Below are positions 6,929 through 29,901 of a DNA stretch of 29,901 nucleotides, in pieces. The stretch is from a virus, in IMG/VR virus record IMGVR_UViG_3300038312_000093, positions 1 to 29,901 of that record; one strand, 5' to 3'. The notes under the pieces were generated by a model. That model did no database searches. It saw only the letters and a program-made list of their open reading frames with translations, and was not told the DNA's origin. Each line of letters begins with the position of its first letter. Within the stretch, counting starts at the first letter, position 1. Made by a program: the position numbers and the translations under genes.

Positions 6929-6968
6929 ACCGCCCGGACACCAACACCACCCGGGCGGTATTTTGTTG
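6929..6968 (+). terminator. rho-independent terminator closing the tail/lysis operon
   Basis: ACCGCCCGG (6929-6937) pairs with CCGGGCGGT (6951-6959) around the loop ACACCAACACCAC. ATTTTGTTG follows the stem. Confidence 0.8.
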
Positions 6969-7022: not shown

Positions 7023-7069
7023 ATATGTGTAGTTCAACAAAACCAACAAAAGACAAGGAGATAAACAAA

Positions 7070-7576
7070 ATGAACACCAACATCAACAACACCCCGAACA
7101 CCCTCACCCCAGACATGATGAAGAAAGCCGGCGCAGTGGAAACAGCCCTACACCAAGCTAAAGCCAACCGCAAACCATATTCAGTTCTGTACAATCCAGA
7201 GTTTGACACTTATTACGTGGAGGCATGGTACCCCGGTCAATTCGAAGCGGCAAAAGAAAACTACTTCCTAACGGTATCAGACTCAGACGCAAGACAACTA
7301 TCAAATGACCCACTAGCCGGAAAGCTACCATTAGCGGACGGAGCGATCAAGATAGCAAGCGTCCCTCAGTTTTATCAAAGCCCCACTTGCATTTACTATA
7401 AGGGAGCACATTACGATTGGCGAAAGGTCAAAAGCCAAGTAGACGAAACCATACTCGCCACAGTGCACAAAGCATTACCCACTAGAAACCAAAACAACCT
7501 GCAATGCTTATTCGACTTATACGTTGGAGCTCACGCATTCGTTCACGGAGAAGAATTCGTCATCAAGCTCTGGTAA
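7070..7576 (+). CDS. hypothetical early protein (168 aa)
   Basis: ATG 7070 lies behind AAGGAGATAAACAAA. The track start at 7025 would lie within or just downstream of the promoter -10. No recognisable motif. Confidence 0.6.
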   Translation: MNTNINNTPNTLTPDMMKKAGAVETALHQAKANRKPYSVLYNPEFDTYYVEAWYPGQFEAAKENYFLTVSDSDARQLSNDPLAGKLPLADGAIKIASVPQFYQSPTCIYYKGAHYDWRKVKSQVDETILATVHKALPTRNQNNLQCLFDLYVGAHAFVHGEEFVIKLW

Positions 7577-8087: not shown

Positions 8088-8107
8088 GCCCGGGTGAAAA
8101 CCCGGGC
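8088..8107 (+). promoter_or_regulatory. intergenic GC-rich stem-loop (CCCGGG core)
   Basis: GCCCGGG (8088-8094) pairs with CCCGGGC (8101-8107) around the loop TGAAAA. ACACCAACACC and the RBS follow. Confidence 0.55.
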
Positions 8108-8132
8108 ACACCAACACCAAAGGAGAAACAAC

Positions 8133-8483: not shown

Positions 8484-9347
8484 ATGAATGACAGTATTGT
8501 AACACAAACAAAAAAACAAGGAGAAAACAACATGCAAACCCCAAACCTTACAAAAGCCCTAATAGGCTTCCAAAAAGCGGTAAAACCCGCAAAATTCGAC
8601 GCTAATAACCCATACTATAACAGCCGATATGCCAGTTTAGGCGAAATCATCAACACCGTCAAAAGCGAAGCCGGAAATCACGGATTGACATGGATACAGC
8701 TACCGATATCAGAGGGAGACCGAGTAGGCGTTAGAACAATCCTAATGCATGAAAGCGGAGAGCAAATTGAGGATAGCATTTTGGTACAGTTACCGCCAAC
8801 GTATGTAACCAACAGCAAAGGCATTGACGTACTACAAAACCAAATCCAAGAGACCGGTAAGTACATCACATATCTGAGACGTTACGCCCTTGCAAGCGTA
8901 TTCGGGTTATATGCAGAGGAAGATAATGACGGAAACCAAAGAGACGGGAACCCAAGACAACCAAAGCAAACCAGTAGCAACAGACAGCCCGCAAGCACGC
9001 AAACTCCAACCAAAAAAACTGAAAAACCAAAAATTGAAAGACCGTACAAACCAACTGACTTGAAAAAACTTTTGATGGAACACGCCCCAAAACTGGCATC
9101 AGCAACCGCCAGTCAACAAAAAGAGGTTGTGGCAGTATTATCTCAGTACGCCGGAGATGATGAAACAAGACACAAAGTACAAAACTACCTGTTTGGCGCA
9201 GAGTCTATCAAAGACGTAAACGGTCGCATCATTGCAGCAGCGCACAGGTGGTTAGACGCAGAATGGAACAGCCAAGAGAAAGTATACCTGTTACCAGACG
9301 TTCAAGCAGAGGAGCTATTCCTCGTGATTGAGGAAGCCACCAAATGA
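8484..9347 (+). CDS. erf: ERF-family single-strand annealing recombinase
   Basis: The pattern matches ERF proteins: LIGFQKAVKPAKFDANNPYYNSRYASLGEI...HESGE...QETGKYITYLRRYALASVFGLYAEEDNDGN. The C-terminal half is low-complexity. An alternative start at ATG 8532 also has an AAGGAG RBS. Confidence 0.8.
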   Translation: MNDSIVTQTKKQGENNMQTPNLTKALIGFQKAVKPAKFDANNPYYNSRYASLGEIINTVKSEAGNHGLTWIQLPISEGDRVGVRTILMHESGEQIEDSILVQLPPTYVTNSKGIDVLQNQIQETGKYITYLRRYALASVFGLYAEEDNDGNQRDGNPRQPKQTSSNRQPASTQTPTKKTEKPKIERPYKPTDLKKLLMEHAPKLASATASQQKEVVAVLSQYAGDDETRHKVQNYLFGAESIKDVNGRIIAAAHRWLDAEWNSQEKVYLLPDVQAEELFLVIEEATK

Positions 9348-10096
9348 CAGCAAAGCGGATAATCCGAGTTGCCAACCGTGAACAGTTTGTAGTCGTCCTG
9401 ACAAAGACAGCACAGGACGACACACTGTCATGGAAAGCAAGAGGAATATTAATTTACTTGCTATCGTTACCGGACAACTGGCAGATATACGTGAGCGACC
9501 TAATCAACAGAGCCCCGGATAAAGAAACATCAGTCCGGACTGGATTGAAAGAACTTGAAAAAGCCGGGTACCTAACCAAGCAAAGAACCAGAGACAGCAA
9601 AGGCAAAATAACAGGTACAGAGTGGATAATCCACGAGAAAGCAGAAGTCCAGCCATATGGTGAAAATCCACATGTGGAAAAACCACACGTGGAAAACCCA
9701 CATGTGGAAAATCAAGGACTAATTAATAAGAACTTAACTAAAGAAGTATCTGAAACTAAAAATAACTTAACAAAAGATACGCCCTCGCTTCGCTCAGGCG
9801 GTCACCGAGAAATGGTTCAAGCGATTGAAAACCTAACATTGTTGGACATGAAAATCAGAAGCAACGCCGGTCAAATAGTACGCCTTGCCAAAGAACTATT
9901 GACAGCCGGTTACACCCCGGAACACGTCACCCAGTTTGGCGAGCTATGGAAAACGGATTGGCGTTACAAGAAAAACCAAGCACCGCCGAGCCTAACAGTA
10001 TTACGTCAGGAAATTGGCAAAGTCAAAAACCACAAACCCAAACCCGCCAACGACCTAGAAGCATTCAGGAAATTGGCACGAGAACAGCAAAGCTAA
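9344..10096 (+). CDS. replication initiator / replisome organiser (winged-helix N-terminal domain, DnaD-like class)
   Basis: ATGA overlap with erf. The N-terminus (FVVVLTKTAQDDTLSWKARGILIYLLSLPDNWQIYVSDL...GLKELEKAGYL) is typical of phage replisome-organiser wHTH domains. It sits between erf and ssb and contains iteron-like repeats. Confidence 0.6.
   Translation: MTAKRIIRVANREQFVVVLTKTAQDDTLSWKARGILIYLLSLPDNWQIYVSDLINRAPDKETSVRTGLKELEKAGYLTKQRTRDSKGKITGTEWIIHEKAEVQPYGENPHVEKPHVENPHVENQGLINKNLTKEVSETKNNLTKDTPSLRSGGHREMVQAIENLTLLDMKIRSNAGQIVRLAKELLTAGYTPEHVTQFGELWKTDWRYKKNQAPPSLTVLRQEIGKVKNHKPKPANDLEAFRKLAREQQS
9662..9712. repeat. three and a half tandem 15-bp iteron-like repeats (candidate origin)
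   Basis: The copies are GAAAATCCACATGTG, GAAAAACCACACGTG, GAAAACCCACATGTG and a partial GAAAAT. Each carries a CCACATGTGG-type palindrome. An A+T-rich stretch (9715-9780) with two AACTTAAC copies follows. Confidence 0.6.
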
Positions 10097-10108
10097 GGAG
10101 AAAAAAAG

Positions 10109-10492
10109 ATGTATCACGAACTAACATTAATTGGAAGACTAGGGCGCGACCCGGAAGCACGTTACACAAAAGACATGCACGAATCCAGCAGTTTCAGCGT
10201 AGCGGTCAATTCGTATGGAGAAGATAATCCTGTCATATGGATAAACGTCACCGCATGGCGTGAAGCCGCCCAGTTCTGCAACAAGCATTTGAGAAAAGGT
10301 GACATGGTTTATATCGCCGGCACATTAAGAGCAGACAAGGAAACCGGCGCACCCCGAGTTTACTCCAAACGAGATGGCACGCCCGGCGCACAGTTCGAAA
10401 TCAACGCCCGGAACGTCATCGGCTTGGTATACGGACAGGAAAAAACACCCCAAAACCAAGAGGAACAGTGGGACGACGATATTCCATTCTAG
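10109..10492 (+). CDS. ssb: single-stranded DNA-binding protein
   Basis: The OB-fold N-terminus (LTLIGRLGRDPEARYT) is followed by a disordered Q/E-rich tail and the canonical acidic tip DDDIPF. RBS is AAGGAG. Confidence 0.9.
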   Translation: MYHELTLIGRLGRDPEARYTKDMHESSSFSVAVNSYGEDNPVIWINVTAWREAAQFCNKHLRKGDMVYIAGTLRADKETGAPRVYSKRDGTPGAQFEINARNVIGLVYGQEKTPQNQEEQWDDDIPF

Positions 10493-10549
10493 CAAGAACA
10501 GGAATTGGAATATACCCCAGAATTTTAGCTTAGATAAGGAGATAAGGAC

Positions 10550-10966
10550 ATGACAACACCAACAACAACCAAAGACCAAGAATTGGAAGAAATCTGCGTA
10601 GAATACTTCCGCCAGAACTTGCACATTGAATACTTAAACCATGAACGAGAAACCGCTATCAAGCTGGCGATTCCGAAAGAGATTCAAGAAACCATTGACA
10701 CCATTGATGCCACTTACGACCAGAAAATCAAAGACGAAATGGAGAAAATCAAACAGACGGAAAACAACATCAAAAACGCCGTTCTAGAACGCAAAGAAAC
10801 ATTCAAGATTAATGGTGTGACAGCGGTCTACAACAAAGGGCGTGTATCGTGGGACGACAAGTTCCTGAAAGGCGTTGCGGTCAAAATGCCGGTAATCCTA
10901 AAGGGACGGTCAGAGGGCAAGCCATACGTAAGTCTCAAAATTACAAAATTGGAGCAACCATGCTAG
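10550..10966 (+). CDS. hypothetical protein (138 aa, coiled-coil-rich)
   Basis: RBS is AAGGAGATAAGGAC. The N-terminal half is charged and helical. No confident family. Confidence 0.55.
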   Translation: MTTPTTTKDQELEEICVEYFRQNLHIEYLNHERETAIKLAIPKEIQETIDTIDATYDQKIKDEMEKIKQTENNIKNAVLERKETFKINGVTAVYNKGRVSWDDKFLKGVAVKMPVILKGRSEGKPYVSLKITKLEQPC

Positions 10967-11187
10967 TTTACAGCCCATTGGAACGTTTTATCGACAACGC
11001 CAATGACACGGTTCGTGACCAGTGTGAGTACTGGCTAAGCCTACTTGACCCGTTTTGGCAAGGTTATGCCAAGATGTTATTCGACAACTTAAAGGCAACC
11101 AAAATCAAAAACATGGGAGACGTGTCGTATGCAGAACTAGCATTAAAATTAGCATCCTACATGCAAGAAAAACAACTAGAAAACTAA
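10960..11187 (+). CDS. hypothetical protein (75 aa)
   Basis: ATG 10960 lies behind GGAG and overlaps the upstream stop (ATGCTAG). The track start at 10849 lies inside the upstream gene. Confidence 0.5.
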   Translation: MLVYSPLERFIDNANDTVRDQCEYWLSLLDPFWQGYAKMLFDNLKATKIKNMGDVSYAELALKLASYMQEKQLEN

Positions 11188-11196
11188 GATAATCAC

Positions 11197-11225
11197 GTCC
11201 GGGTGGTCACCAACGCCACCCGGAC
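11197..11225 (+). promoter_or_regulatory. intergenic GC-rich stem-loop
   Basis: GTCCGGGTGG (11197-11206) pairs with CCACCCGGAC (11216-11225) around the loop TCACCAACG. There is no U-tract. Confidence 0.6.
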
Positions 11226-11242
11226 AAGAAAGAGAGTAAAGA

Positions 11243-11824
11243 ATGTTTAAAGCAGATAATTTTAGACAAAGCCTTGAATTACCAAGCGTTACCGTATTGC
11301 CAGAAGAAAAGAAAGAAGCTGAAGCCGAGTACAAAAAATTATATAGTACTGAACCGGTACTCAACAACTTGACCGTGCACAAAAAAGAGGAAAGCCGATT
11401 CGCCGGTATCATTGGAGAATTAGTCTTCCAAAGGTTGTACCCGAAAGCAGGCAGAGTATCATTAATTGACCCCGGATGCCCATATGATTTTAAGTACATT
11501 TATGAGAAAGTAGACGTGAAATGCAAAGTAAGAACAAACGCACCAAAACTAGAATATGAAGGCAGTTTTTTTGCCTATCAATTAGATGAATTAAAACGCC
11601 TAGACGTGTTACTGTATTTTATGTCCACCACCAAAAAGTTTGACCGGGTATGGTTATGCGGTTACATGCCAACAGTTGGGTTTATGAATCATCCAAGATT
11701 GCAAGTATGGCAAGAGGGAGAAATAGACCAAAGCAACGGTAAGAAATACCACGCAAAAACGTACGGATTAGCATACGAACACATGTACCCTATAAACGTG
11801 AATAAGATACAAAAGTGGCTTTAG
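11243..11824 (+). CDS. putative PD-(D/E)xK-fold nuclease
   Basis: GIIGELVF ... PYDF ... EKVDVKCK has the spacing of an E / D / (D/E)xK restriction-endonuclease-like core. It is the last gene of the recombination/replication block. Confidence 0.45.
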   Translation: MFKADNFRQSLELPSVTVLPEEKKEAEAEYKKLYSTEPVLNNLTVHKKEESRFAGIIGELVFQRLYPKAGRVSLIDPGCPYDFKYIYEKVDVKCKVRTNAPKLEYEGSFFAYQLDELKRLDVLLYFMSTTKKFDRVWLCGYMPTVGFMNHPRLQVWQEGEIDQSNGKKYHAKTYGLAYEHMYPINVNKIQKWL

Positions 11825-11841
11825 AAAATTGGTCAGAAATT

Positions 11842-11856
11842 GGGTCAAATTGACCC
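11842..11856. promoter_or_regulatory. operator-like palindrome abutting the -35 of P2
   Basis: GGGTCAA-A-TTGACCC has perfect 7-bp arms and a 1-nt centre, too tight for an RNA hairpin. TTGGTCA and TTGACA half-site-like copies flank it. Confidence 0.4.
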
Positions 11857-11885
11857 TTGACAAAAATCTAGACACCCTTTATAAT
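11857..11885 (+). promoter_or_regulatory. promoter P2 (perfect sigma70 consensus)
   Basis: -35 is TTGACA (11857-11862), the spacer is exactly 17 nt, and -10 is TATAAT (11880-11885). The GTGTAGTTCAA box and A/C-rich leader match P1. Confidence 0.8.
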
Positions 11886-11933
11886 ACTAGTGTAGTTCAA
11901 AAACAACCAACAAAACCAAGGAGAAAAAACAAA

Positions 11934-12254
11934 ATGAACGCAAAGAAACAATACACCCAAGAAGTCATCAACAAAGTCAATGAATTAGGATACGAACTTA
12001 ATTCAGTCCAACCAGAGAACACTTGGTCACGTCAAGTTATCGCCTACTCGTTAGACCTAGACCGAGATATCACCGTTTATAGAAGCGTTGAAGAAACCAC
12101 AACACATGCACACTTAAGAGCCTATCAAAACATTGAAGAAGCCAAAGAAACTGCCAAAGCATATGAGAGAGCAATCGCAGCAGCGGAGTACATCCAAAGC
12201 ATTGATATGAACCAAATGCTAGAAGTTAACTGCAATCGCATTATTGAAAGATAA
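11934..12254 (+). CDS. hypothetical protein (106 aa)
   Basis: ATG 11934 lies behind AAGGAGAAAAAACAAA. The track start at 11829 would read through the promoter. Confidence 0.6.
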   Translation: MNAKKQYTQEVINKVNELGYELNSVQPENTWSRQVIAYSLDLDRDITVYRSVEETTTHAHLRAYQNIEEAKETAKAYERAIAAAEYIQSIDMNQMLEVNCNRIIER

Positions 12255-12286
12255 GAAACCAACACCAACAAACCAAAGGAGAAACC

Positions 12287-12772
12287 ATGAAAGCAACAAA
12301 ACAGGACACCAAAGCAAAGCAAAGCCTAATCAACGCAATCGCTAAAGCGGTCAAGATGACATACGAACAGTATAAAGACCATTCGGTCATTGCAAGGTCA
12401 TTCGGGAGCAGTACCTTTGACATCATCGAAAGCCATAGCGAACAACAGACCCAGAACCCAGACACCTACACCTGTACCGTAACAGAAGACGACGTTATTT
12501 ATTTTGCACAAGCAGTTGACGTTGATAACAGACAGGACATGTACTATGAAATCGCTGTCATCATTGCCAACAATCTGCACAAGTACAGAAAACCAGACAC
12601 GGTTGTCATCAATGGAAGAACCATTGATTGGGAAGTCGCATTACAGTACATGGACGATGAAATCAGAGAAGCAGTCGCAAGCTATGAGACTATCACCTCC
12701 AACCAAGAATTCGTAGACGAGTACGCCAAGCAACACTATTACGATTTCAAAGAGGTTTTTGAAATCAACTAA
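12287..12772 (+). CDS. hypothetical protein (161 aa)
   Basis: RBS is AAAGGAGAAACC. The C-terminal ALQYMDDEIREAV...NQEFVDEYAKQH resembles a motif I recall in small mobile-element proteins, but I cannot name a family. Confidence 0.6.
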   Translation: MKATKQDTKAKQSLINAIAKAVKMTYEQYKDHSVIARSFGSSTFDIIESHSEQQTQNPDTYTCTVTEDDVIYFAQAVDVDNRQDMYYEIAVIIANNLHKYRKPDTVVINGRTIDWEVALQYMDDEIREAVASYETITSNQEFVDEYAKQHYYDFKEVFEIN

Positions 12773-12788
12773 CACCAACGAACAGCAC

Positions 12789-12815
12789 CCCGGGCGGACA
12801 CCAACACCGCCCGGG
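12789..12815 (+). promoter_or_regulatory. intergenic GC-rich stem-loop (CCCGGG core)
   Basis: CCCGGGCGG (12789-12797) pairs with CCGCCCGGG (12807-12815) around the loop ACACCAACA. The RBS follows immediately. Confidence 0.65.
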
Positions 12816-12829
12816 AAAGGAGAAACAAC

Positions 12830-13432
12830 ATGAGCGAAGTAAACAAATGCCCAAGATGCGAAGAGGTAAGAGAATATCATTTTTTGAAAAGTAACCAAGA
12901 GTTATATTGCGATAAATGCTTGTCCTCGTTTGACCCTATGTACCAAGAAAACCGACTTGGCAAAGTAGCTGATATTTTACTTGAAATCGACATGTCCGGA
13001 ACATGCAGAGGAAACATCATCATGCCAAACCGATTAGAACAGGTCATCAAGCACCATGAAAACCTGTATCAGTCTATATCCATCGAACTGGACGAGCAGC
13101 GGCAAGAAATAACCGATTACAAAGAAAGAACCAAAGATAAGAAATTCGTTGACAACAAAAACATTTTATGCCCGGAATGTCTGAATTATGAATACCTGTA
13201 CGTTGGAGAAAGAGGTTGGTTCTATTGCGCCAAATGCGACCAAGATATTTTAGAAGATGACATGCTCACCGTTAGCAGGCACAATCCAATCTGCCACAGG
13301 TGCGGTAAAAACCTTACGACCGAAAGTTGGACGTATGCCCGGTGTGGTGAAGACCACAGAACAGGCATTGGCATTTGGTGTGCAGTCTGCAAGCAACCTG
13401 CTGAAATATATGATGATGACATTCCATTTTAG
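12830..13432 (+). CDS. triple zinc-ribbon protein ending in an SSB-type acidic tip (DDDIPF)
   Basis: The Cys pairs are C7xxC10...C27xxC30, C114xxC117...C133xxC136 and C155xxC158...C184xxC187. A charged helix lies between ribbons 1 and 2. The last six residues, DDDIPF, are identical to the phage SSB tail at 10475-10492. Confidence 0.7.
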   Translation: MSEVNKCPRCEEVREYHFLKSNQELYCDKCLSSFDPMYQENRLGKVADILLEIDMSGTCRGNIIMPNRLEQVIKHHENLYQSISIELDEQRQEITDYKERTKDKKFVDNKNILCPECLNYEYLYVGERGWFYCAKCDQDILEDDMLTVSRHNPICHRCGKNLTTESWTYARCGEDHRTGIGIWCAVCKQPAEIYDDDIPF

Positions 13433-13452
13433 GCGGAGCAAGGAAAAATCCA

Positions 13453-13620
13453 ATGAAAACACTAATTGACTTTGCAATCCTATACATTACATACATCGTG
13501 CCATTTATAGCGATTTTGACCCTGTTTTACTTCGTAGAACAAACGATAATAAAAAGGTCAAATAGAAATAAAGCAGACCGTTACCCGGTCATCAAAACAG
13601 TAAGGAGAAAATATGAGTAA
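13453..13620 (+). CDS. small membrane protein (55 aa; below the ORF-track cutoff)
   Basis: ATG 13453 lies behind AAGGAAAAATCC. The protein is MKTLIDFAILYITYIVPFIAILTLFYFV plus a basic tail. It fills an otherwise non-coding gap and overlaps the next start by 8 nt. Confidence 0.45.
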   Translation: MKTLIDFAILYITYIVPFIAILTLFYFVEQTIIKRSNRNKADRYPVIKTVRRKYE

Positions 13621-13855
13621 AGGAAAAGCCTATTTTAGCGTCCAACCGAAAAACGAATATTGGATGGCATCCGTCCAATTACGAGCAACCACCGGAATGA
13701 CAAAAGCAGATGTAGCCAGAGCAGCCGGAGTAAACATCAAAACGATTGACAAATTCGAAGCTAATGGAGCAGAAAGAATGGTTGTCGGAACGTTACGTAA
13801 AATCGTTGAAGCAATGGGATATGAATTAGTCCTAACAATCAAAGACAAGGAGTAG
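13613..13855 (+). CDS. XRE/Cro-family helix-turn-helix DNA-binding protein
   Basis: RBS is AAGGAGAAAAT. MTKADVARAAGVNIKTIDKFEANG is a typical HTH_3 helix-turn-helix. Confidence 0.7.
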   Translation: MSKGKAYFSVQPKNEYWMASVQLRATTGMTKADVARAAGVNIKTIDKFEANGAERMVVGTLRKIVEAMGYELVLTIKDKE

Positions 13856-13857
13856 AC

Positions 13858-14037
13858 ATGCACGAAGAATATTTTAAGCCATGCCCATTTTGTGGAAGCA
13901 AAGAAGTACTGAAACGCAAGGTAATGCTAAACGAACAAGTTGAATATATTACCGAGTGTCAAAAATGCTTTTGCGTTGTCCAAGGTTGGGGAGAGACCCG
14001 AGACGATGAACCTTGGAATCAAAGAGACAACGAATAA
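13858..14037 (+). CDS. Lar-family restriction alleviation protein (59 aa; below the ORF-track cutoff)
   Basis: MHEEYFKPCPFCGSKEV...CQKC...PWNQR matches the KPCPFCG / CxxC / WNxR layout I recall for E. coli Rac Lar. RBS is AAGGAG. Confidence 0.6.
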   Translation: MHEEYFKPCPFCGSKEVLKRKVMLNEQVEYITECQKCFCVVQGWGETRDDEPWNQRDNE

Positions 14038-14064
14038 AAAACCAACACCAACAGGAGAAACAAC

Positions 14065-14271
14065 ATGAAAAACCAAGACAACATTGTAGAAAAACTAATA
14101 GCCGGTCAACGAGCAGAGAAAGCCGAGGCGATGGTTGAGCGGATGATTGAGGCAGGCAATCGATTATACGAATTAGCAGAAGAGCTTGATGATTTGGTCG
14201 ATGAGTTTCGCGCCTATCCCGACTTAGTAAGTTGGCGCACGCTCGTTGCCGAGTGGAAGGAGAGGGAGTGA
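14065..14271 (+). CDS. hypothetical acidic helical protein (68 aa)
   Basis: RBS is AGGAGAAACAAC. The protein is E/A-rich. Confidence 0.55.
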   Translation: MKNQDNIVEKLIAGQRAEKAEAMVERMIEAGNRLYELAEELDDLVDEFRAYPDLVSWRTLVAEWKERE

Positions 14272-14750
14272 TGAGCTATTGCAGGTTTTCAAACGCGGAT
14301 GCTTATATTTATGAAGCCGAAGAGGGATTTACTTGTTGCGGTTGTCGTATTGCTGAAAGCGGAATGTTCGTCTGTGAAACAGAATTAGAAATGATTGAGC
14401 ATATCGCACAGCACCGTAAAGCAGGCCATTTTGTGCCTACATACGTAGATGATATGTTGCGCGATGAGGTTTCAGACTACATCGCCACCCTCGAAGCCGA
14501 AGTTGAGGCGTTGCGACCGTATCGGGATGGGTATGACCCGAAAGAGCGGTTGCCTGAAGTAAACAAATATGAGCCGGACACCTCGGTTAATGTTGACGCA
14601 TTAATCCTGACGGCCAGCGGTGTTGTTTTTTGGGGCACGCTATATTACCACTTCGGTAAAAAAGAATGGTTAGGGATTCGAGACAATATGGTAATCCTTC
14701 GCTGGTATCCAGAACTTCCGTATTCAGAAAGCGAGGTGAGAAATGAGTGA
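14271..14750 (+). CDS. hypothetical protein with a Cys/His N-terminal domain and a DUF551-like C-terminus
   Basis: ATG 14271 overlaps the upstream TGA (GTGATGA) and lies behind GGAGAGGGAG. The N-terminus is YCRF...CCGC...HIAQHRKAGHFVP. The C-terminus (ERLPE...ILRWYPELP) resembles DUF551. Confidence 0.55.
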   Translation: MSYCRFSNADAYIYEAEEGFTCCGCRIAESGMFVCETELEMIEHIAQHRKAGHFVPTYVDDMLRDEVSDYIATLEAEVEALRPYRDGYDPKERLPEVNKYEPDTSVNVDALILTASGVVFWGTLYYHFGKKEWLGIRDNMVILRWYPELPYSESEVRNE

Positions 14751-14961
14751 GATTAGCGAAAAGGCGAAAGAGCTTTTGGAGAGCACGGTTAAGAACGCTA
14801 TTGCGTACGGTCAAGAAAAAGGCAACCCTTTTGGGCTTGTAAGTACTTACGAGGCTATGTTCAGGCTTGATAAGAGTGAGCTTGAACACTACATCGCCAC
14901 CCTCGAAGCCGAAAACCGCGCGCTAAGACACTCACTGGAGTTGCGGGAGTGTGAGGAATGA
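14743..14961 (+). CDS. hypothetical protein (72 aa)
   Basis: It overlaps the upstream stop. It shares the YIATLEAE peptide and a 26-nt repeat with the upstream gene. Confidence 0.5.
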   Translation: MSEISEKAKELLESTVKNAIAYGQEKGNPFGLVSTYEAMFRLDKSELEHYIATLEAENRALRHSLELRECEE

Positions 14962-15311
14962 ACAAAAAAGAAACAGAAGAAAAAATAGTTAACCAGTTCG
15001 AAAAAACAGTCAACCAGTTTGATAATGCAGTTTATAACGAGCGTATCAACAGAGGAAAAAACGGGTACAGTTACCACATGGAAGAGTATTACAGAACTAG
15101 AGAAAAAATACTCCAAACAGGAAACATGTTATCAAAAACAATTGACTTGCTAGAAAAAACAAAGCAAAACCTAAGTAAGGCATTATTGACTTGTGAGTTA
15201 CTTGTTCCACACAGCGAAGCGTTTCAAACCTTACTCAAAAGACGCATTGGACAAATTGATGAACTCGTAAAAGAAGCCGGTCAAGAGTTTAACTATAATT
15301 GGAAACCATAG
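14958..15311 (+). CDS. hypothetical coiled-coil protein (117 aa)
   Basis: ATGA overlap with the upstream gene. The protein is K/E-rich and helical. Confidence 0.5.
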   Translation: MNKKETEEKIVNQFEKTVNQFDNAVYNERINRGKNGYSYHMEEYYRTREKILQTGNMLSKTIDLLEKTKQNLSKALLTCELLVPHSEAFQTLLKRRIGQIDELVKEAGQEFNYNWKP

Positions 15312-16890: not shown

Positions 16891-17409
16891 ATGAATATTC
16901 CGCAATGGCTTAAAAACATGGAAAGGTCAAAGCCACAATCCGAAGAACAGCTAATTGAATTAGCGATACAAATTGCGAAGCGAAATGTACAAAATAATAC
17001 AGGCGGTCCATTCGGAGCAGCAATTTACGATAAAAACAAAAAACTACTAAGCGTGGGAGCAAACCTTGTAATAAGAAACAACTGTTCGTTACTCCACGCA
17101 GAAGTTGTAGCAATTCTGCTGGCACAGAAAAAACTTAAGACATATGACCTAAGTGCGGTAGGTGCAGTTCTAGCAACATCAGCAGAGCCATGTATTATGT
17201 GCCAAGGAGCAATTTACTGGTCAGGAATAACAAAAGTTATTTATGCAGCTAGTACACAAGATGTCGAAAAGATAGGTTTTAAGGAAGGGAATAAATTACC
17301 AATCGAAAAGGCGTTGAAAAACATCAGCATTGTTCAACTAGCGCAAGAAAAAGCAATCCAAGAAAGCTTAAATATTTACAAAGGACCAATATACAATGCA
17401 GATATATGA
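16891..17409 (+). CDS. CDA-fold zinc deaminase, guanine-deaminase-like
   Basis: The motifs are HAE (aa 69-71), PCIMC (aa 100-104) and an N-terminal GGPFGAAIYDK. A C-terminal helical extension resembles B. subtilis GuaD more than dCMP deaminase or TadA. This is from recollection only. Confidence 0.7.
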   Translation: MNIPQWLKNMERSKPQSEEQLIELAIQIAKRNVQNNTGGPFGAAIYDKNKKLLSVGANLVIRNNCSLLHAEVVAILLAQKKLKTYDLSAVGAVLATSAEPCIMCQGAIYWSGITKVIYAASTQDVEKIGFKEGNKLPIEKALKNISIVQLAQEKAIQESLNIYKGPIYNADI

Positions 17410-17521
17410 AAATAGAATTATAGGGTCTAAAAAAGTAAAAATTGATGAAATTTTATTCAATCCACAAAACTGGCGCACACATCCACACTTTCAAGAAAAG
17501 GCATTAGAAAGGAAAAAACCC
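17396..17521 (+). pseudogene. remnant of a ParB-like nuclease-domain N-terminus, in frame with the downstream transporter
   Basis: KVKIDEILFNPQNWRTHPHFQEKAL matches the ParB-N pattern (I..L.pNP.N.R.H...Q...L). It then breaks off after ~40 aa into the transporter ORF. Confidence 0.5.
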
Positions 17522-18190
17522 ATGAAAAACAAAGAAAGAAACATAGTCCTTATAATTGTCACCTTAATCGGAATATACATTGCTTCGCAGGCGATAGCGG
17601 ACGTTGCAGCGACCCGAATGATTCAAATCGGAAAAATCGTATTACCCGGTGGCGTACTCATGTTCGCATTAACTTTCACTTTGCGAGACTTTATTCATAA
17701 GCGATTAGGTAAAAAATGGGCACGAGCAACAGTCATCATGGCAGCAGTAATGAATGTCTTCCAACTAGCGTACCTGTATTTTATCGGCAAGCTAGACGCG
17801 CCTGTATTTTATGGTTTCAATGAAGAATGGCGAAATATCTTTGCTATTGTCCCAGCTGTGTCAATCGCCAGTATTGTAGCTGAAGTATCCAGTCAGCTAA
17901 TTGATACCGAAGTGTATCAATTCATTATGGACAAATATCCAAAATTACCGCAGATATTCAGAGTATTAATATCAAACTTCATCGCCTTACCATTCGACTC
18001 GTTAATCTTTGCGTTACTCGGTTTTGTTATTTTGCCACAATTGTTTGGCAGTACAAGTTACACATTTATTGACGCAATAGCATTGACATCAGGACAGATT
18101 ATTTACAAAGCGATAGTGACCATTTTATCTGCTCCAGCCATTTATTTAATCAAAGACGAACAGATAAAGGTGTCCTTAATGACAGAATAG
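17522..18190 (+). CDS. yhhQ: VUT-family transporter, YhhQ-like (queuosine/7-deazaguanine precursor transporter)
   Basis: 222 aa from ATG 17522, with ~6 hydrophobic helices. By-eye collinearity with E. coli YhhQ: FALTFTLRDFIHKRLGKKWAR, SQLIDTEVYQF, ALPFDSLIFALLGF and IIYKAIVTILSAPAIY. Confidence 0.8.
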   Translation: MKNKERNIVLIIVTLIGIYIASQAIADVAATRMIQIGKIVLPGGVLMFALTFTLRDFIHKRLGKKWARATVIMAAVMNVFQLAYLYFIGKLDAPVFYGFNEEWRNIFAIVPAVSIASIVAEVSSQLIDTEVYQFIMDKYPKLPQIFRVLISNFIALPFDSLIFALLGFVILPQLFGSTSYTFIDAIALTSGQIIYKAIVTILSAPAIYLIKDEQIKVSLMTE

Positions 18191-27105: not shown

Positions 27106-29901
27106 GTACAATTGCAGATTTAGCGGTAAAGCTAGGACTTGACTCTAGTGGTTTTAGTAAAGGCGTTGGACAAGCGCAAGGTGATTTATCCAAACTTGAA
27201 CAATCAGTCAACAAAGTTCGTGAAGCCGGTAAGAAAATATCAGACGTTGGCAAAGCTATTTCTATTGGCGTTACTGCACCTGTTACCGCCGCAAGTATCG
27301 CACTTTTGAAGTTTGGTTCAGACGCTCAAAAATCACTCCAAATTGAAAAAGCATTTAATGATATTGCGTCCTCAGCCGGACGAATGGGAAGAGAAGTTTT
27401 GGCAGGACTGAAAATGTCAAGCCAAGGACTAATCACCAACACCGAATTAATGAAATCGTTTAACCTTGCTGCCAACCTAGTCAGCAAGGATTTTGCACTT
27501 AAGCTACCAGAAGCCATGAAATACCTTGGCAAAGTATCAGCTGCAACCGGTCAAGACATGAGTTATCTATTGGATAGTCTTGTCAAAGGTGTTGGTAGAT
27601 TATCGCCAATGATTTTAGACAACCTAGCGGTGCAAGTAAGCCTAACAGACGCTTATGATAAATACGCTAAAAGCATTGGCAAAACAGCAGACGAACTAAC
27701 CAAAGCAGAACAACAAACCGCAGTCATGAATGAAACCATGCGCCTATTAAAACGCAACACCGCAAGCATGGGAGATGAATTCGGTACAACCGGCGACAAA
27801 ATCAAAACCGCAATGGGTAACGCAAAAGACGCAATTGGAAAACAACTTGCCCCAGCACTAAAAGACGCAGGAGAAAGAATCATTCCGCTTGTCAATCGTT
27901 TTGCTGAATTATTCAAAGAGGGCAACTCACTGCACCCGGTTATTACAGTGCTTGGAGACACTGTCAACAAACTAATAGGACACGCAGAAAACCTTGTAAA
28001 CTGGCTAAGCCAACTTAACCCACAAGTGGTAGAGAATACAGTCAAATTTACCCTGTTCTTAGCTGTCCTAGGACCAACCTTGCTAATTGTTGGAAAACTT
28101 ACAAAAGCGTTTTCTGGATTTATGTCCGTATTCGGGAAAATAGGAACATTATTCAAGAACACAATTATTGCGTTTGAGGGTGGCAACCTTGTATTAGCAT
28201 CGACAGGGTTAGCCGCCAAAGGCGCAGCAACCGGCGTCAAAACCCTATCTGTATCGCTTAGCAAATTAGCCATGTTCGGCGGTTGGGGATTATTAGTAGG
28301 CGGTGCAATCGCACTCGGAAAATGGCAAAAAGAGCTTGAAAACACTAGTAACACCGTTGCAGATAGCATGAGAGATATTGACGGTGTTTTAATCAAAAGC
28401 GGACAAAGCTTTGATGATTGGCGTGAAAGTGTCAACAACGCATTAAAAGACATAGAGCTTCCAAAAGGACTTACAGAATGGGATATGCAAGTTGCATTTA
28501 TCAAAACCCAAATGGAAGACCTTGTAAAAGCAGGCGTAATCACCGCAGACGAAATGGAAAGCCTATACTGGCGCATGCGTAACCCCGGTTCAGGTGGTGG
28601 CATGGCAGTTATGAACTACGTCCACGGTTTGGTAGAGGGATATGAAACCCTAAAGGAAACCATGTGGAGTGTTGTTCCGGCAATGAAAGCGTATGATGAC
28701 GCTATCGACTACCAAGAGGGTTTAGTCGGTGTTGGACGGACAGCAGAAGAATTAGAAAAAGTTCGTGACAACGCAGAGGAAGCCACAAGCGCAGCCGCAG
28801 AACTAGCCGCGGAATTACAATCATTTACCGTTCAAGTAGATGACGTTACAAGCCTAACAAAAAACTTCGGGAGTATCGTTTCTTTAGCGGAAAGCTACAC
28901 CACAGAACTTGAAAATATTGCAAAGGCGCAAGAGCGAATTAAAGAGCTAGAACCGTTCGAAGATACCGGCGGACGGATTGACGGTGTTTGGATGTCAGCA
29001 GCGAAAGTCAAAGAAGAGCTGGAAAACTTGCGTGGTGAAGTATCAAAGAGCGAAGAAGCCATGCAACGTATGGCAGACCAAATGACCTTAAACATGCTAC
29101 AAGCTACTATTGCAATCGGTGGCGTCACACAGGCAGAAGCAGAAGCATATTTCAAGATGGCAGTTGATATGGGCGTCATCAGTCAAGATGCAGCAGATAA
29201 AGCAATGGAAGCCTATGGCAATGCAGTAGACACTATCAATGACTATGTAGTAGAAACAAAAACCGGCATAGTAGAAGCAAGCGCAGAACAGTACTGGCGT
29301 GTTATCCGAGACATTGAAAGTCAACAGTTTCAGGACAAAATCGCTGAATTTATTGCAGAGGCAGAACAATTCGATGAGACTTGGACAGCCAGAGACGCCT
29401 TAGAATTCGGGCAAAAAGTTGCTGATACATTATTAGAAACCGGTCAGTTTGGAGAGGATTTCAGCGCAATTGACGCATTAGAATTCCTTGGAAAAACCAT
29501 TCCAGTTGAATTGAAAAACGCCGCAATCGCACAAGACAATTTGGACAAATTCCAAAACTTCGAGTTTATTCCAAAATGGATAGACTTCGTACTTGGCGAT
29601 ACATCAGAAGTCGAGGGATACAATCCACCAACCCGAACCGGAACTGTAAATTATCAGCTAGGCAATACTCCAACTTGGAATCCACCGTCTTACGGTCCGA
29701 CACTAACACCAAGAGCAACAGGCGGTAGAGCAATTGCAGACAGCGTATACCTTGTAGGCGAAAGAGGTCCAGAACTATTTATTCCGGACGTGTCCGGAAA
29801 CGTTGTTCCGAACTGGCAACTTGACGTATCAAGCACATCATCGTTTGATGAAAGAGCATTGGCTCGGGCTGTCGCAACCGCCATGAGAGAGGTATACCAA
29901 G
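27102..29901 (+). CDS. tail tape measure protein (N-terminal 933 codons; continues at 1-177, about 959 aa in total)
   Basis: I translated the frame from ATG 27102 to the window end and found no stop. It has an N-terminal helical region, a central hydrophobic/G-rich segment (LFLAVLGPTLLIVGKL...GGWGLLVGGAIALG) and a conserved C-terminal YLVGERGPELFIP. It is missing from the track only because it has no stop inside the window. Confidence 0.9.
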   Translation, partial: MSTIADLAVKLGLDSSGFSKGVGQAQGDLSKLEQSVNKVREAGKKISDVGKAISIGVTAPVTAASIALLKFGSDAQKSLQIEKAFNDIASSAGRMGREVLAGLKMSSQGLITNTELMKSFNLAANLVSKDFALKLPEAMKYLGKVSAATGQDMSYLLDSLVKGVGRLSPMILDNLAVQVSLTDAYDKYAKSIGKTADELTKAEQQTAVMNETMRLLKRNTASMGDEFGTTGDKIKTAMGNAKDAIGKQLAPALKDAGERIIPLVNRFAELFKEGNSLHPVITVLGDTVNKLIGHAENLVNWLSQLNPQVVENTVKFTLFLAVLGPTLLIVGKLTKAFSGFMSVFGKIGTLFKNTIIAFEGGNLVLASTGLAAKGAATGVKTLSVSLSKLAMFGGWGLLVGGAIALGKWQKELENTSNTVADSMRDIDGVLIKSGQSFDDWRESVNNALKDIELPKGLTEWDMQVAFIKTQMEDLVKAGVITADEMESLYWRMRNPGSGGGMAVMNYVHGLVEGYETLKETMWSVVPAMKAYDDAIDYQEGLVGVGRTAEELEKVRDNAEEATSAAAELAAELQSFTVQVDDVTSLTKNFGSIVSLAESYTTELENIAKAQERIKELEPFEDTGGRIDGVWMSAAKVKEELENLRGEVSKSEEAMQRMADQMTLNMLQATIAIGGVTQAEAEAYFKMAVDMGVISQDAADKAMEAYGNAVDTINDYVVETKTGIVEASAEQYWRVIRDIESQQFQDKIAEFIAEAEQFDETWTARDALEFGQKVADTLLETGQFGEDFSAIDALEFLGKTIPVELKNAAIAQDNLDKFQNFEFIPKWIDFVLGDTSEVEGYNPPTRTGTVNYQLGNTPTWNPPSYGPTLTPRATGGRAIADSVYLVGERGPELFIPDVSGNVVPNWQLDVSSTSSFDERALARAVATAMREVYQ
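29805..29901. repeat. terminal overlap, copy 2 (identical to 1-97)
   Basis: Direct comparison with bases 1-97. Confidence 0.95.

Follow-up and report, generated by a model that had tools for sequence, protein, structure and literature searches.

A phage zinc-ribbon protein that ends in the C-terminal docking peptide of SSB

The C-terminal tip of SSB, the protein that binds single-stranded DNA, serves bacterial genome maintenance as its central docking peptide and is also a drug target. A basic, hydrophobic pocket for it is present on chi, PriA, RecQ, RecJ, ExoI, RecG, RecO, DnaG and other SSB-interacting proteins. The hexapeptide DDDIPF is the recognised SSB C-terminal (SSB-Ct) motif, with at least 17 binding partners (PMC5872125, PMC10018359); it mediates binding to many of them on its own, and SSB-Ct mimetics inhibit them (PMC5872125, PMC10018359, PMC10143822). 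Here we examine a 29,901-nucleotide stretch of viral DNA (positions 1 to 29,901 of IMG/VR record IMGVR_UViG_3300038312_000093; hereafter the window, which is essentially the whole genome of a small phage), in which the coding sequence at 12830..13432 (+) specifies a 200-residue protein with three zinc ribbons that ends in exactly this hexapeptide, as does the SSB encoded by the same genome (10109..10492, +).

Inhibition through short-linear-motif mimicry is known from Staphylococcus phage proteins that target the beta clamp, and a terminal Phe is a feature of the tails of the helicase-primase gp4 and the SSB gp2.5 of phage T7. These two T7 proteins have acidic C-terminal tails in common, which dock on the polymerase (PMC12593628). 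SSB-like tails also occur outside canonical SSBs: for DUF669 proteins, SSB function has been argued from an acidic SSB-like tail, in viruses that have no other known SSB (PMC4889955), and DdrB carries an SSB-like tail that was reported to be dispensable (PMC3834827). On the receiving side, recognition of SSB C-terminal tails is known for single-strand-annealing proteins of the Redbeta/RecT type; the C-terminal domain of Redbeta binds the SSB C-terminal peptide (PMC6393309), and the portability of RecET is guided by SSB-Ct matching (PMC13490951).

The zinc-ribbon protein shares with E. coli SSB (...MDFDDDIPF) the identical terminal hexapeptide with its free C-terminal Phe, as well as acidic and aromatic residues just before it (EIY-DDDIPF here, DF-DDDIPF in E. 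coli). It differs from bacterial SSBs in having a linker of only 7 residues and neither an OB fold, a long disordered linker nor a recognisable tetramerisation core, and in being acidic and probably unable to bind single-stranded DNA (ssDNA). As in T7, a single phage has docking tails of one acidic kind on two distinct proteins, which would thus be able to address the same partner surface. In T7, however, that surface belongs to a polymerase of the phage, and an enzyme is the second carrier; here the shared tip is that of bacterial SSB, no polymerase could be found in the phage and the second carrier has no enzymatic domain. Like the DUF669/N4-type and DdrB-type ssDNA-binding proteins, which have no OB fold, the protein has an SSB-like C-terminus without being a canonical SSB, but those proteins bind ssDNA and replace SSB, whereas the zinc-ribbon protein is acidic and occurs alongside a canonical SSB. 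The logic that we propose for it below, in which the docking peptide of a hub fills the pocket of a partner, is that of the Staphylococcus beta-clamp inhibitors and of the synthetic SSB-Ct mimetics.

Three predicted zinc ribbons and an SSB tip in one acidic protein

The open reading frame (ORF) at 12830..13432 starts with ATG, stops at 13430..13432, has a GGAG Shine-Dalgarno sequence 7 nt 5' of the start (12819..12822) and is called as a gene in the related loci L001-L008. Its product contains three CxxC...CxxC modules (cysteine pairs C7/C10 + C27/C30, C114/C117 + C133/C136 and C155/C158 + C184/C187), each made of two CxxC knuckles 15-25 residues apart, and all 12 module cysteines are invariant across the three known alleles, as expected of zinc ribbons; C59, H75 and H76 are likewise invariant, and an extra cysteine, C172, varies. 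Zinc ribbon 1 (12848..12919, +) and zinc ribbon 2 (13169..13237, +) have a common pattern, CP.C-x16-[LF]YC.KC, that can be read directly in the sequence. A profile of the two homologs aligns residues 109-143, in module 2, to the N-terminal zinc ribbon of TFIIB (1pft, E = 0.004), which supports the assignment of this module. Between the first two ribbons lies a predicted helical hairpin or coiled-coil (residues 36-101; 12935..13132, +), and zinc ribbon 3 (13292..13390, +) is followed, 7 residues past its last zinc ligand, by the tip D195-F200 (13412..13429, +), so that the chain ends in ...PAEIYDDDIPF*. With only three alleles known, the alignment is too shallow for a good structure model, and the AlphaFold2 model, built on two sequences, is poor, with a mean confidence score (pLDDT) of 52; only part of the helical region is modelled confidently (residues 41-90, pLDDT 74-84), with helices at 36-56 and 66-101. 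A Foldseek search of this poor model against the PDB returned nothing at E <= 0.001. Net charge is -8 to -12 and the isoelectric point 5.0-5.8 in all alleles; zinc ribbon 2 contributes -6, and a neutral to slightly basic charge is confined to zinc ribbon 3. The ORF encodes a real, conserved, acidic protein composed of three predicted zinc ribbons and a helical hairpin, whose free C-terminus is the SSB-Ct peptide.

Profile searches place the protein in no Pfam family, the only matches being weak, sub-threshold ones of module 1 (residues 6-40) to DZR_2 and Zn_ribbon_IS1595, and they gave no PHROG or PADLOC match and no similarity to any listed anti-defence protein. Membership of the DksA/TraR, Ogr/Delta and Lar groups was considered and ruled out, as no such Pfam profile matches at E <= 0.1. 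Nor does any SSB family: no match to PF00436 was obtained at E <= 0.1 and none to an SSB PHROG at E <= 0.01, whereas the window's SSB scored 2e-19 in the same run. Judged from these searches, this is a new architecture outside any described family.

The charge bears on one functional idea, that of a non-canonical SSB whose zinc ribbons bind ssDNA (compare the C-terminal ribbons of topoisomerase I and the zinc-containing T4 gp32) and whose tail plays the ordinary SSB role. Zinc ribbons can bind nucleic acids, and the DUF669 case offers a precedent for reading SSB function from such a tail. The acidity nevertheless argues against ssDNA binding, with only zinc ribbon 3 slightly basic; a canonical SSB with the same tip is present, unlike in the DUF669 viruses; and the SSB profiles do not match. 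We therefore regard this explanation as quite improbable, and a predicted protein-binding or mimic role fits an acidic protein free of enzyme domains better than DNA binding does.

The second copy of the hexapeptide ends the phage SSB, an OB-fold protein (PF00436, E 2e-19; PHROG 44) that terminates in ...EEQWDDDIPF*, with the tip at 10472..10489. The zinc-ribbon gene lies 2.3 kb downstream on the same strand. The 18-nt tip sequences, GATGATGACATTCCATTTTAG (= GATGATGACATTCCATTT) in the zinc-ribbon ORF and GACGACGATATTCCATTCTAG (= GACGACGATATTCCATTC) in the SSB gene, show four synonymous differences, which rule out a recent DNA duplication as the source of the shared tip; by its codons, the match is one at the peptide level. 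Chance is ruled out as well: exactly two instances of the degenerate DDDIPF-stop pattern are present in the window, none arose in 100 dinucleotide-preserving shuffles, and it is very improbable that two C-termini should match over a hexapeptide. The C-termini of all other ORFs of the window and its relatives were checked for an acidic [IL]PF tip, and none was found. Two proteins of one genome, the zinc-ribbon protein and the SSB, thus carry the same peptide at their very C-termini. A sequence-only reading of the window had described the 200-residue ORF, its three modules and the ending shared with the SSB, had taken the match to be at the peptide level and had known of no described family with this architecture; all of this holds.

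Relatives of the protein are few. A word-indexed search of 5.8 billion clusters returned the identical protein P0001 and the 52%-identical P0002 (197 residues); an exhaustive phmmer search of 1.84 billion representatives returned P0002 alone, the sole other cluster at 50% identity; and a scan of IMG/VR contributed L007, an identical copy, and L008, which carries a third allele. No homolog was found in GenBank phages (tblastn) or in GTDB genomes, and megablast of window positions 9000-15000 against GenBank phages gave no relative. All copies of the protein come from one group of ~30-33-kb siphovirus-like contigs with the same gene order.

Within this group the tip is conserved while its flanks diverge. 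DDDIPF is retained 6/6 in all three alleles, whereas the 7-residue linker is 29-57% and the whole protein 52-89% identical, and the tip DNA shows a single synonymous change. Relative to P0002, the window protein is 33% identical in the helical region and 76% in zinc ribbon 3, the best-conserved module. In L008, residues 1-150 are essentially those of the window, and the stretch between C158 and the tip has been extensively exchanged for that of a diverged allele (CHRCGQKKTVEHWSDDRHGDDRLLSVWCAVCKDEALRS-DDDIPF), with cysteines and tip kept; this mosaic swap of the tip-proximal module resembles diversification at a host-contact surface. The SSB tips, in contrast, drift among genomes (WDDDIPF in the window and L001, WGDDIPF in L008, WGDNIPF in L005 and L007), and since the tip of the zinc-ribbon protein is invariant, it is constrained at least as strongly as that of the SSB. 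Homologs lacking the acidic tip would have spoken against a role for it, as the sequence-only reading had pointed out; the alleles known go the other way, the tip being more conserved than its cognate SSB counterpart.

A tip that is a functionless coincidence, or the relic of an old domain shuffle with the SSB gene, would be in keeping with the tiny size of the family, in which one synonymous change among three alleles gives a weak codon-level signal of selection, and with the dispensable tail of DdrB. The shuffled sequences exclude chance, however, the tip has stayed 6/6 while the linker and the protein as a whole (52%) diverged, and it has outlasted the module swap in L008, which together make this the least probable account, one to which we give very little credence.

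DDDIPF on other phage proteins

To place the protein among other carriers of the tip, we scanned IMG/VR for DDDIPF followed by a stop codon, which gave at least 120 loci (L009-L128); these form a convenience sample, in which fractions are rough. About 10 chance matches are estimated for the whole IMG/VR collection, and nearly all matches are therefore real C-termini. The census set drawn from the matches listed comprises 114 ORFs of at least 60 residues, which fall into 38 sequence clusters once the tails are stripped. PF00436 SSBs account for 35 of the 114, and about 17 more belong to clusters that PHROG assigns to other SSB families. Carriers with other assigned functions are five superfamily 2 (SF2) helicases (PHROG 16; ResIII/DEAD/Helicase_C), a DnaB_C helicase fragment, an ERF protein with a zinc ribbon (L029), a DNA polymerase processivity factor homologous to sliding clamps (L085, PHROG 947) and a CAP12/Pycsar-type TIR protein (L039); about 50 have no annotated function (DUF669-like, Pam3 gp34-like, 75-residue helical proteins of PHROG 1811 and others). 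About half of the 114 ORFs listed are thus neither canonical nor PHROG-annotated SSBs. The same is seen in a cultured phage, Pseudomonas phage NP1, in which an annotated DNA helicase (AND74894.1; KX129925.1 36601..38376; L130:2989-4764) ends in ...SYADLDDDIPF.

The survey that the sequence-only reading had proposed therefore did turn up non-SSB carriers of the tip, and in such numbers that its implication that a protein without an OB fold would be unusual in carrying it was overstated. These sequence data show that DDDIPF docking tails on non-SSB proteins are widespread among phages, and suggest that viruses use tail sharing, as known from T7, as a general strategy, one that has gone uncatalogued. 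The literature search found no paper on phage non-SSB proteins carrying SSB-Ct and no natural SSB-Ct-mimicking inhibitor, in a library that is incomplete and so gives weak evidence on both points. The NP1 helicase and the other DDDIPF replication proteins resemble the zinc-ribbon protein in being non-SSB phage proteins with the exact SSB-Ct tip; they differ in being enzymes or replication proteins (SF2 or DnaB helicases, clamp, ERF). NP1 may differ also in its SSB: the one neighbouring ORF translated, a DUF669-like candidate SSB by eye, does not carry the tip, whereas in the window the SSB and the zinc-ribbon protein are both tipped. None of the 120 sampled loci has two exact DDDIPF tips, so the pairing in the window is uncommon.

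The kinds of protein found in the census argue for reading the zinc-ribbon protein as a recruiting adaptor. Its ribbons would attach to a component of the phage, be it the DnaD-like initiator, the origin or ERF, or to a specific DNA structure, and its tip would attract PriA, DnaG, the chi-psi clamp-loader arm or another SSB-interacting protein of the host, aiding replisome assembly or fork restart. The tip carriers of known function among the IMG/VR matches listed are helicases, a processivity factor and an ERF protein, NP1 supplies a cultured example, and the T7 tails dock on a polymerase; the position of the gene downstream of the SSB gene would suit such a role, and so would the consideration that an indiscriminate decoy would hurt the phage's own SSB. 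On the other side, an overall acidic protein is predicted to be a poor DNA binder, and the SSB of the same genome already puts the tip on ssDNA. The adaptor, with the partners named, seems to us somewhat unlikely as it stands, though little less probable than the decoy proposed below.

The census bears in a different way on the idea that the partner of the tip is a phage protein, for which the best candidate is the ERF single-strand-annealing protein encoded at 8484..9347 (PF04404, E 2e-21), so that the zinc-ribbon protein would regulate or localise phage recombination. The presence of this gene, the binding of the SSB C-terminal peptide by the Redbeta C-terminal domain and the SSB-Ct matching in RecET would all be in line with it, but the ERF protein of L029 carries the tip itself, which points to a partner other than a single-strand-annealing protein. 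We consider an ERF partner improbable.

The gene string around the zinc-ribbon gene

The zinc-ribbon gene belongs to a co-directional string that runs from a 106-residue orphan through a gene with an AcrIC5 domain, a hairpin, the zinc-ribbon gene and a 55-residue hydrophobic ORF to a helix-turn-helix (HTH) gene and a Lar-like gene. At its head stands a sigma-70-type promoter that matches the consensus at 12 of 12 positions (TTGACA-17-TATAAT; 11857..11885, +), with a palindrome, GGGTCAAATTGACCC, overlapping its -35 element (palindrome and promoter together 11843..11885, +). The promoter with its palindrome is conserved in all relatives, and the -10 element and an adjacent AAATTGACCCTTG block are invariant in L001, L002, L005 and L008, divergent relatives included. 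From its sequence, this promoter probably drives the string that contains the zinc-ribbon gene, and the element at 11843..11885 is probably an operator-controlled early promoter. For the recruiting adaptor, the position is unfavourable: the strong promoter separates the zinc-ribbon gene from the replication module and sets it among genes of an anti-defence-like kind.

The upstream neighbour (12287..12772, +) encodes an acidic protein of 161 residues with a C-terminal AcrIC5 (anti-CRISPR) domain (PF22147, E 1.3e-14, 54.5 bits against a cut-off of 27), and all relatives keep the order of this gene and the zinc-ribbon gene. AcrIC5 itself is acidic, and the prediction for it is that it blocks the protospacer-adjacent motif (PAM) site of Cas8c (bioRxiv 10.1101/2025.06.06.658234). 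A search with the neighbour found homologs only in the same phage group. The window also holds a paralog at 7025..7576 (+), acidic and with a C-terminal PF22147 domain that scores 23 bits, under the cut-off; the N-terminal parts of both paralogs match no family. Downstream, an 80-residue XRE/Cro-type HTH protein (13613..13855, +; HTH_26, E 1.7e-5, above the Pfam cut-off; PHROG transcriptional regulator families) is a candidate autoregulator of the promoter; it belongs to no known Aca family, has no match to Aca2 and gives weak PADLOC matches. The Lar-like zinc protein that follows (13858..14037) was assigned by a profile match, and its ORF is distinct from the zinc-ribbon gene.

This layout resembles an acr-aca anti-defence operon, with which it has in common a strong promoter with a palindrome, an Acr-family-domain gene, small orphans and then an HTH gene, and from which it differs in that the HTH protein matches no known Aca family. 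We infer that the promoter is common to the AcrIC5-domain gene and the zinc-ribbon gene, in which case the latter adjoins an Acr-family-domain gene within one transcription unit, as genes of anti-defence operons do.

The two genes are separated by a GC-rich hairpin with a 9-bp stem and the loop ACACCAACA (12789..12815, +), directly 5' of the ribosome-binding site of the zinc-ribbon gene. The intergenic region bearing it is 96% identical across relatives, compared with just 52-66% for the flanking proteins, and one stem pair varies among C-G, T-A and T.G. No Rfam family covers the intergenic hairpins, and the element may act in RNA processing or stability, or as a recombination site where modules meet. 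The loop motif G[GC]NCACCAACRCC occurs at four sites in the window (6936..6948, 8106..8118, 11196..11224 and 12789..12815, all +), against 0.26 expected; at the last two it forms the loop of a verified GC-rich hairpin directly 5' of a ribosome-binding site, with different stems. Mosaicism is strong between L001 and L002, which encode an identical zinc-ribbon protein (P0002) next to AcrIC5-like proteins that are 66% and 94% identical, respectively, to that of the window; the module boundary falls at the conserved hairpin and intergenic block.

In the rest of the window, structural, packaging and lysis functions are represented by an endolysin (GH25 + M23 + SH3), a terminase, an SPP1-type portal and a MuF-like gene, and gene calls on the relative L005 add a Sipho_Gp37-like tail gene. 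The replication and recombination module comprises ERF, the SSB, an initiator of the DnaD/HTH_36 type (9344..10096, +) and an ORF weakly similar to Gam. Pfam and PHROG scans of the window found no helicase, primase or polymerase, so that initiator, SSB and ERF are all that it offers for replication, a point in favour of an adaptor that would enlist host proteins. Residues ~107-121 of the initiator contain a tandem PHVE(N/K) peptide repeat (ENPHVEKPHVENPHVEN), also seen in L008, which could coincide with origin iterons in the DNA. A 193-residue orphan at 11243..11824 (+), with no Pfam or PHROG match, shows by eye a PD-(D/E)xK-like motif (...PYDF...EKVDVKCK...) and may be a nuclease partner of the ERF/SSB recombination module. 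Before the terminase lie genes for a dCMP deaminase (16891..17409) and a Vut_1 protein, a YhhQ-like queuosine-precursor transporter (17396..18190), and L001 (in 9995..11492) additionally has QueC; together these hint at 7-deazaguanine DNA modification in the phage group. The only sizeable minus-strand ORFs, of 316 residues (27653..28603, -) and 94 residues (28895..29179, -), have no Pfam or PHROG match. No integrase was recognised and no tRNA found in the window. As to the host, comparison with actinophage portals gave <32% identity for the portal; the endolysin matches a gene from a cyanobacterial metagenome-assembled genome at 29% identity and lysins of Firmicutes phages at ~32%, and the SSB matches those of Paenibacillus and E. 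coli phages at ~30%.

Decoy or recruiter

By analogy with known SSB-Ct ligands, the tip of the zinc-ribbon protein would insert into the SSB-Ct pockets of SSB-interacting proteins. Zinc ribbon 3, because it lies 7 residues from the tip, is the best-conserved module and has been block-exchanged in one allele, may add contacts that give selectivity for one partner. We tentatively propose, with confidence that falls well short of even, that the protein is a selective competitor or decoy for the SSB-tail pocket of one host enzyme. It would be made early, from a strong and conserved promoter that heads a string of anti-defence-like genes, and would fill the SSB-tail pocket of a single host SSB-dependent nuclease, helicase or sensor; that enzyme would then be kept off SSB-coated phage ssDNA, for example ERF recombination intermediates, while the phage's own SSB could still recruit the partners that the phage needs. 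Such a role would be consistent with the retention of the tip both in the 52%-identical allele and in the allele in which zinc ribbon 3 has been replaced. The acidic charge, the lack of enzymatic and DNA-binding signatures, the anti-defence-like neighbourhood, the block exchange of the tip-proximal module and the recruitment already supplied by the SSB lean toward a decoy, whereas the kinds of other tip carriers lean toward a recruiter.

Several points weigh against the decoy. The structure model is poor; the census carriers of known function are replication and recombination proteins, which presumably use the tip to recruit and not to inhibit; and a general decoy would also disturb the SSB of the phage itself. 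Both the HTH protein, which is outside the known Aca families, and the neighbour with the AcrIC5 domain provide context only, and an SSB-like tail can be dispensable, as that of DdrB reportedly is. Finally, the similarities of portal, endolysin and SSB point to no one host. In its boldest form, which we regard as doubtful, the proposal is that this is the first natural SSB-Ct-mimicking inhibitor, an acidic zinc-ribbon protein that would imitate SSB-coated ssDNA and switch off one host SSB-dependent nuclease, helicase or immune sensor, and that SSB-Ct serves in dozens of unrelated phage families as a portable tag for plugging into the host SSB hub or jamming it.

As to principle, the protein offers a variant on docking through SSB-Ct and on the tail sharing already known; what is new is its architecture. 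A natural non-SSB protein that displays the exact tip is a ready-made probe of the SSB hub, and because E. coli SSB ends in the very same tip, both the decoy and the recruiter can be tested in E. coli without the natural host. If the protein is an inhibitor, it would represent a new class of phage counter-measure that works by linear-motif mimicry and a template for inhibitors directed at SSB-Ct; if it is a recruiter, it would reveal how a minimal phage that lacks helicase, primase and polymerase connects to the replisome of its host. In the end, the census may outweigh the single gene, with at least 38 unrelated clusters among the 114 sampled DDDIPF ORFs, including the helicase of a cultured phage.

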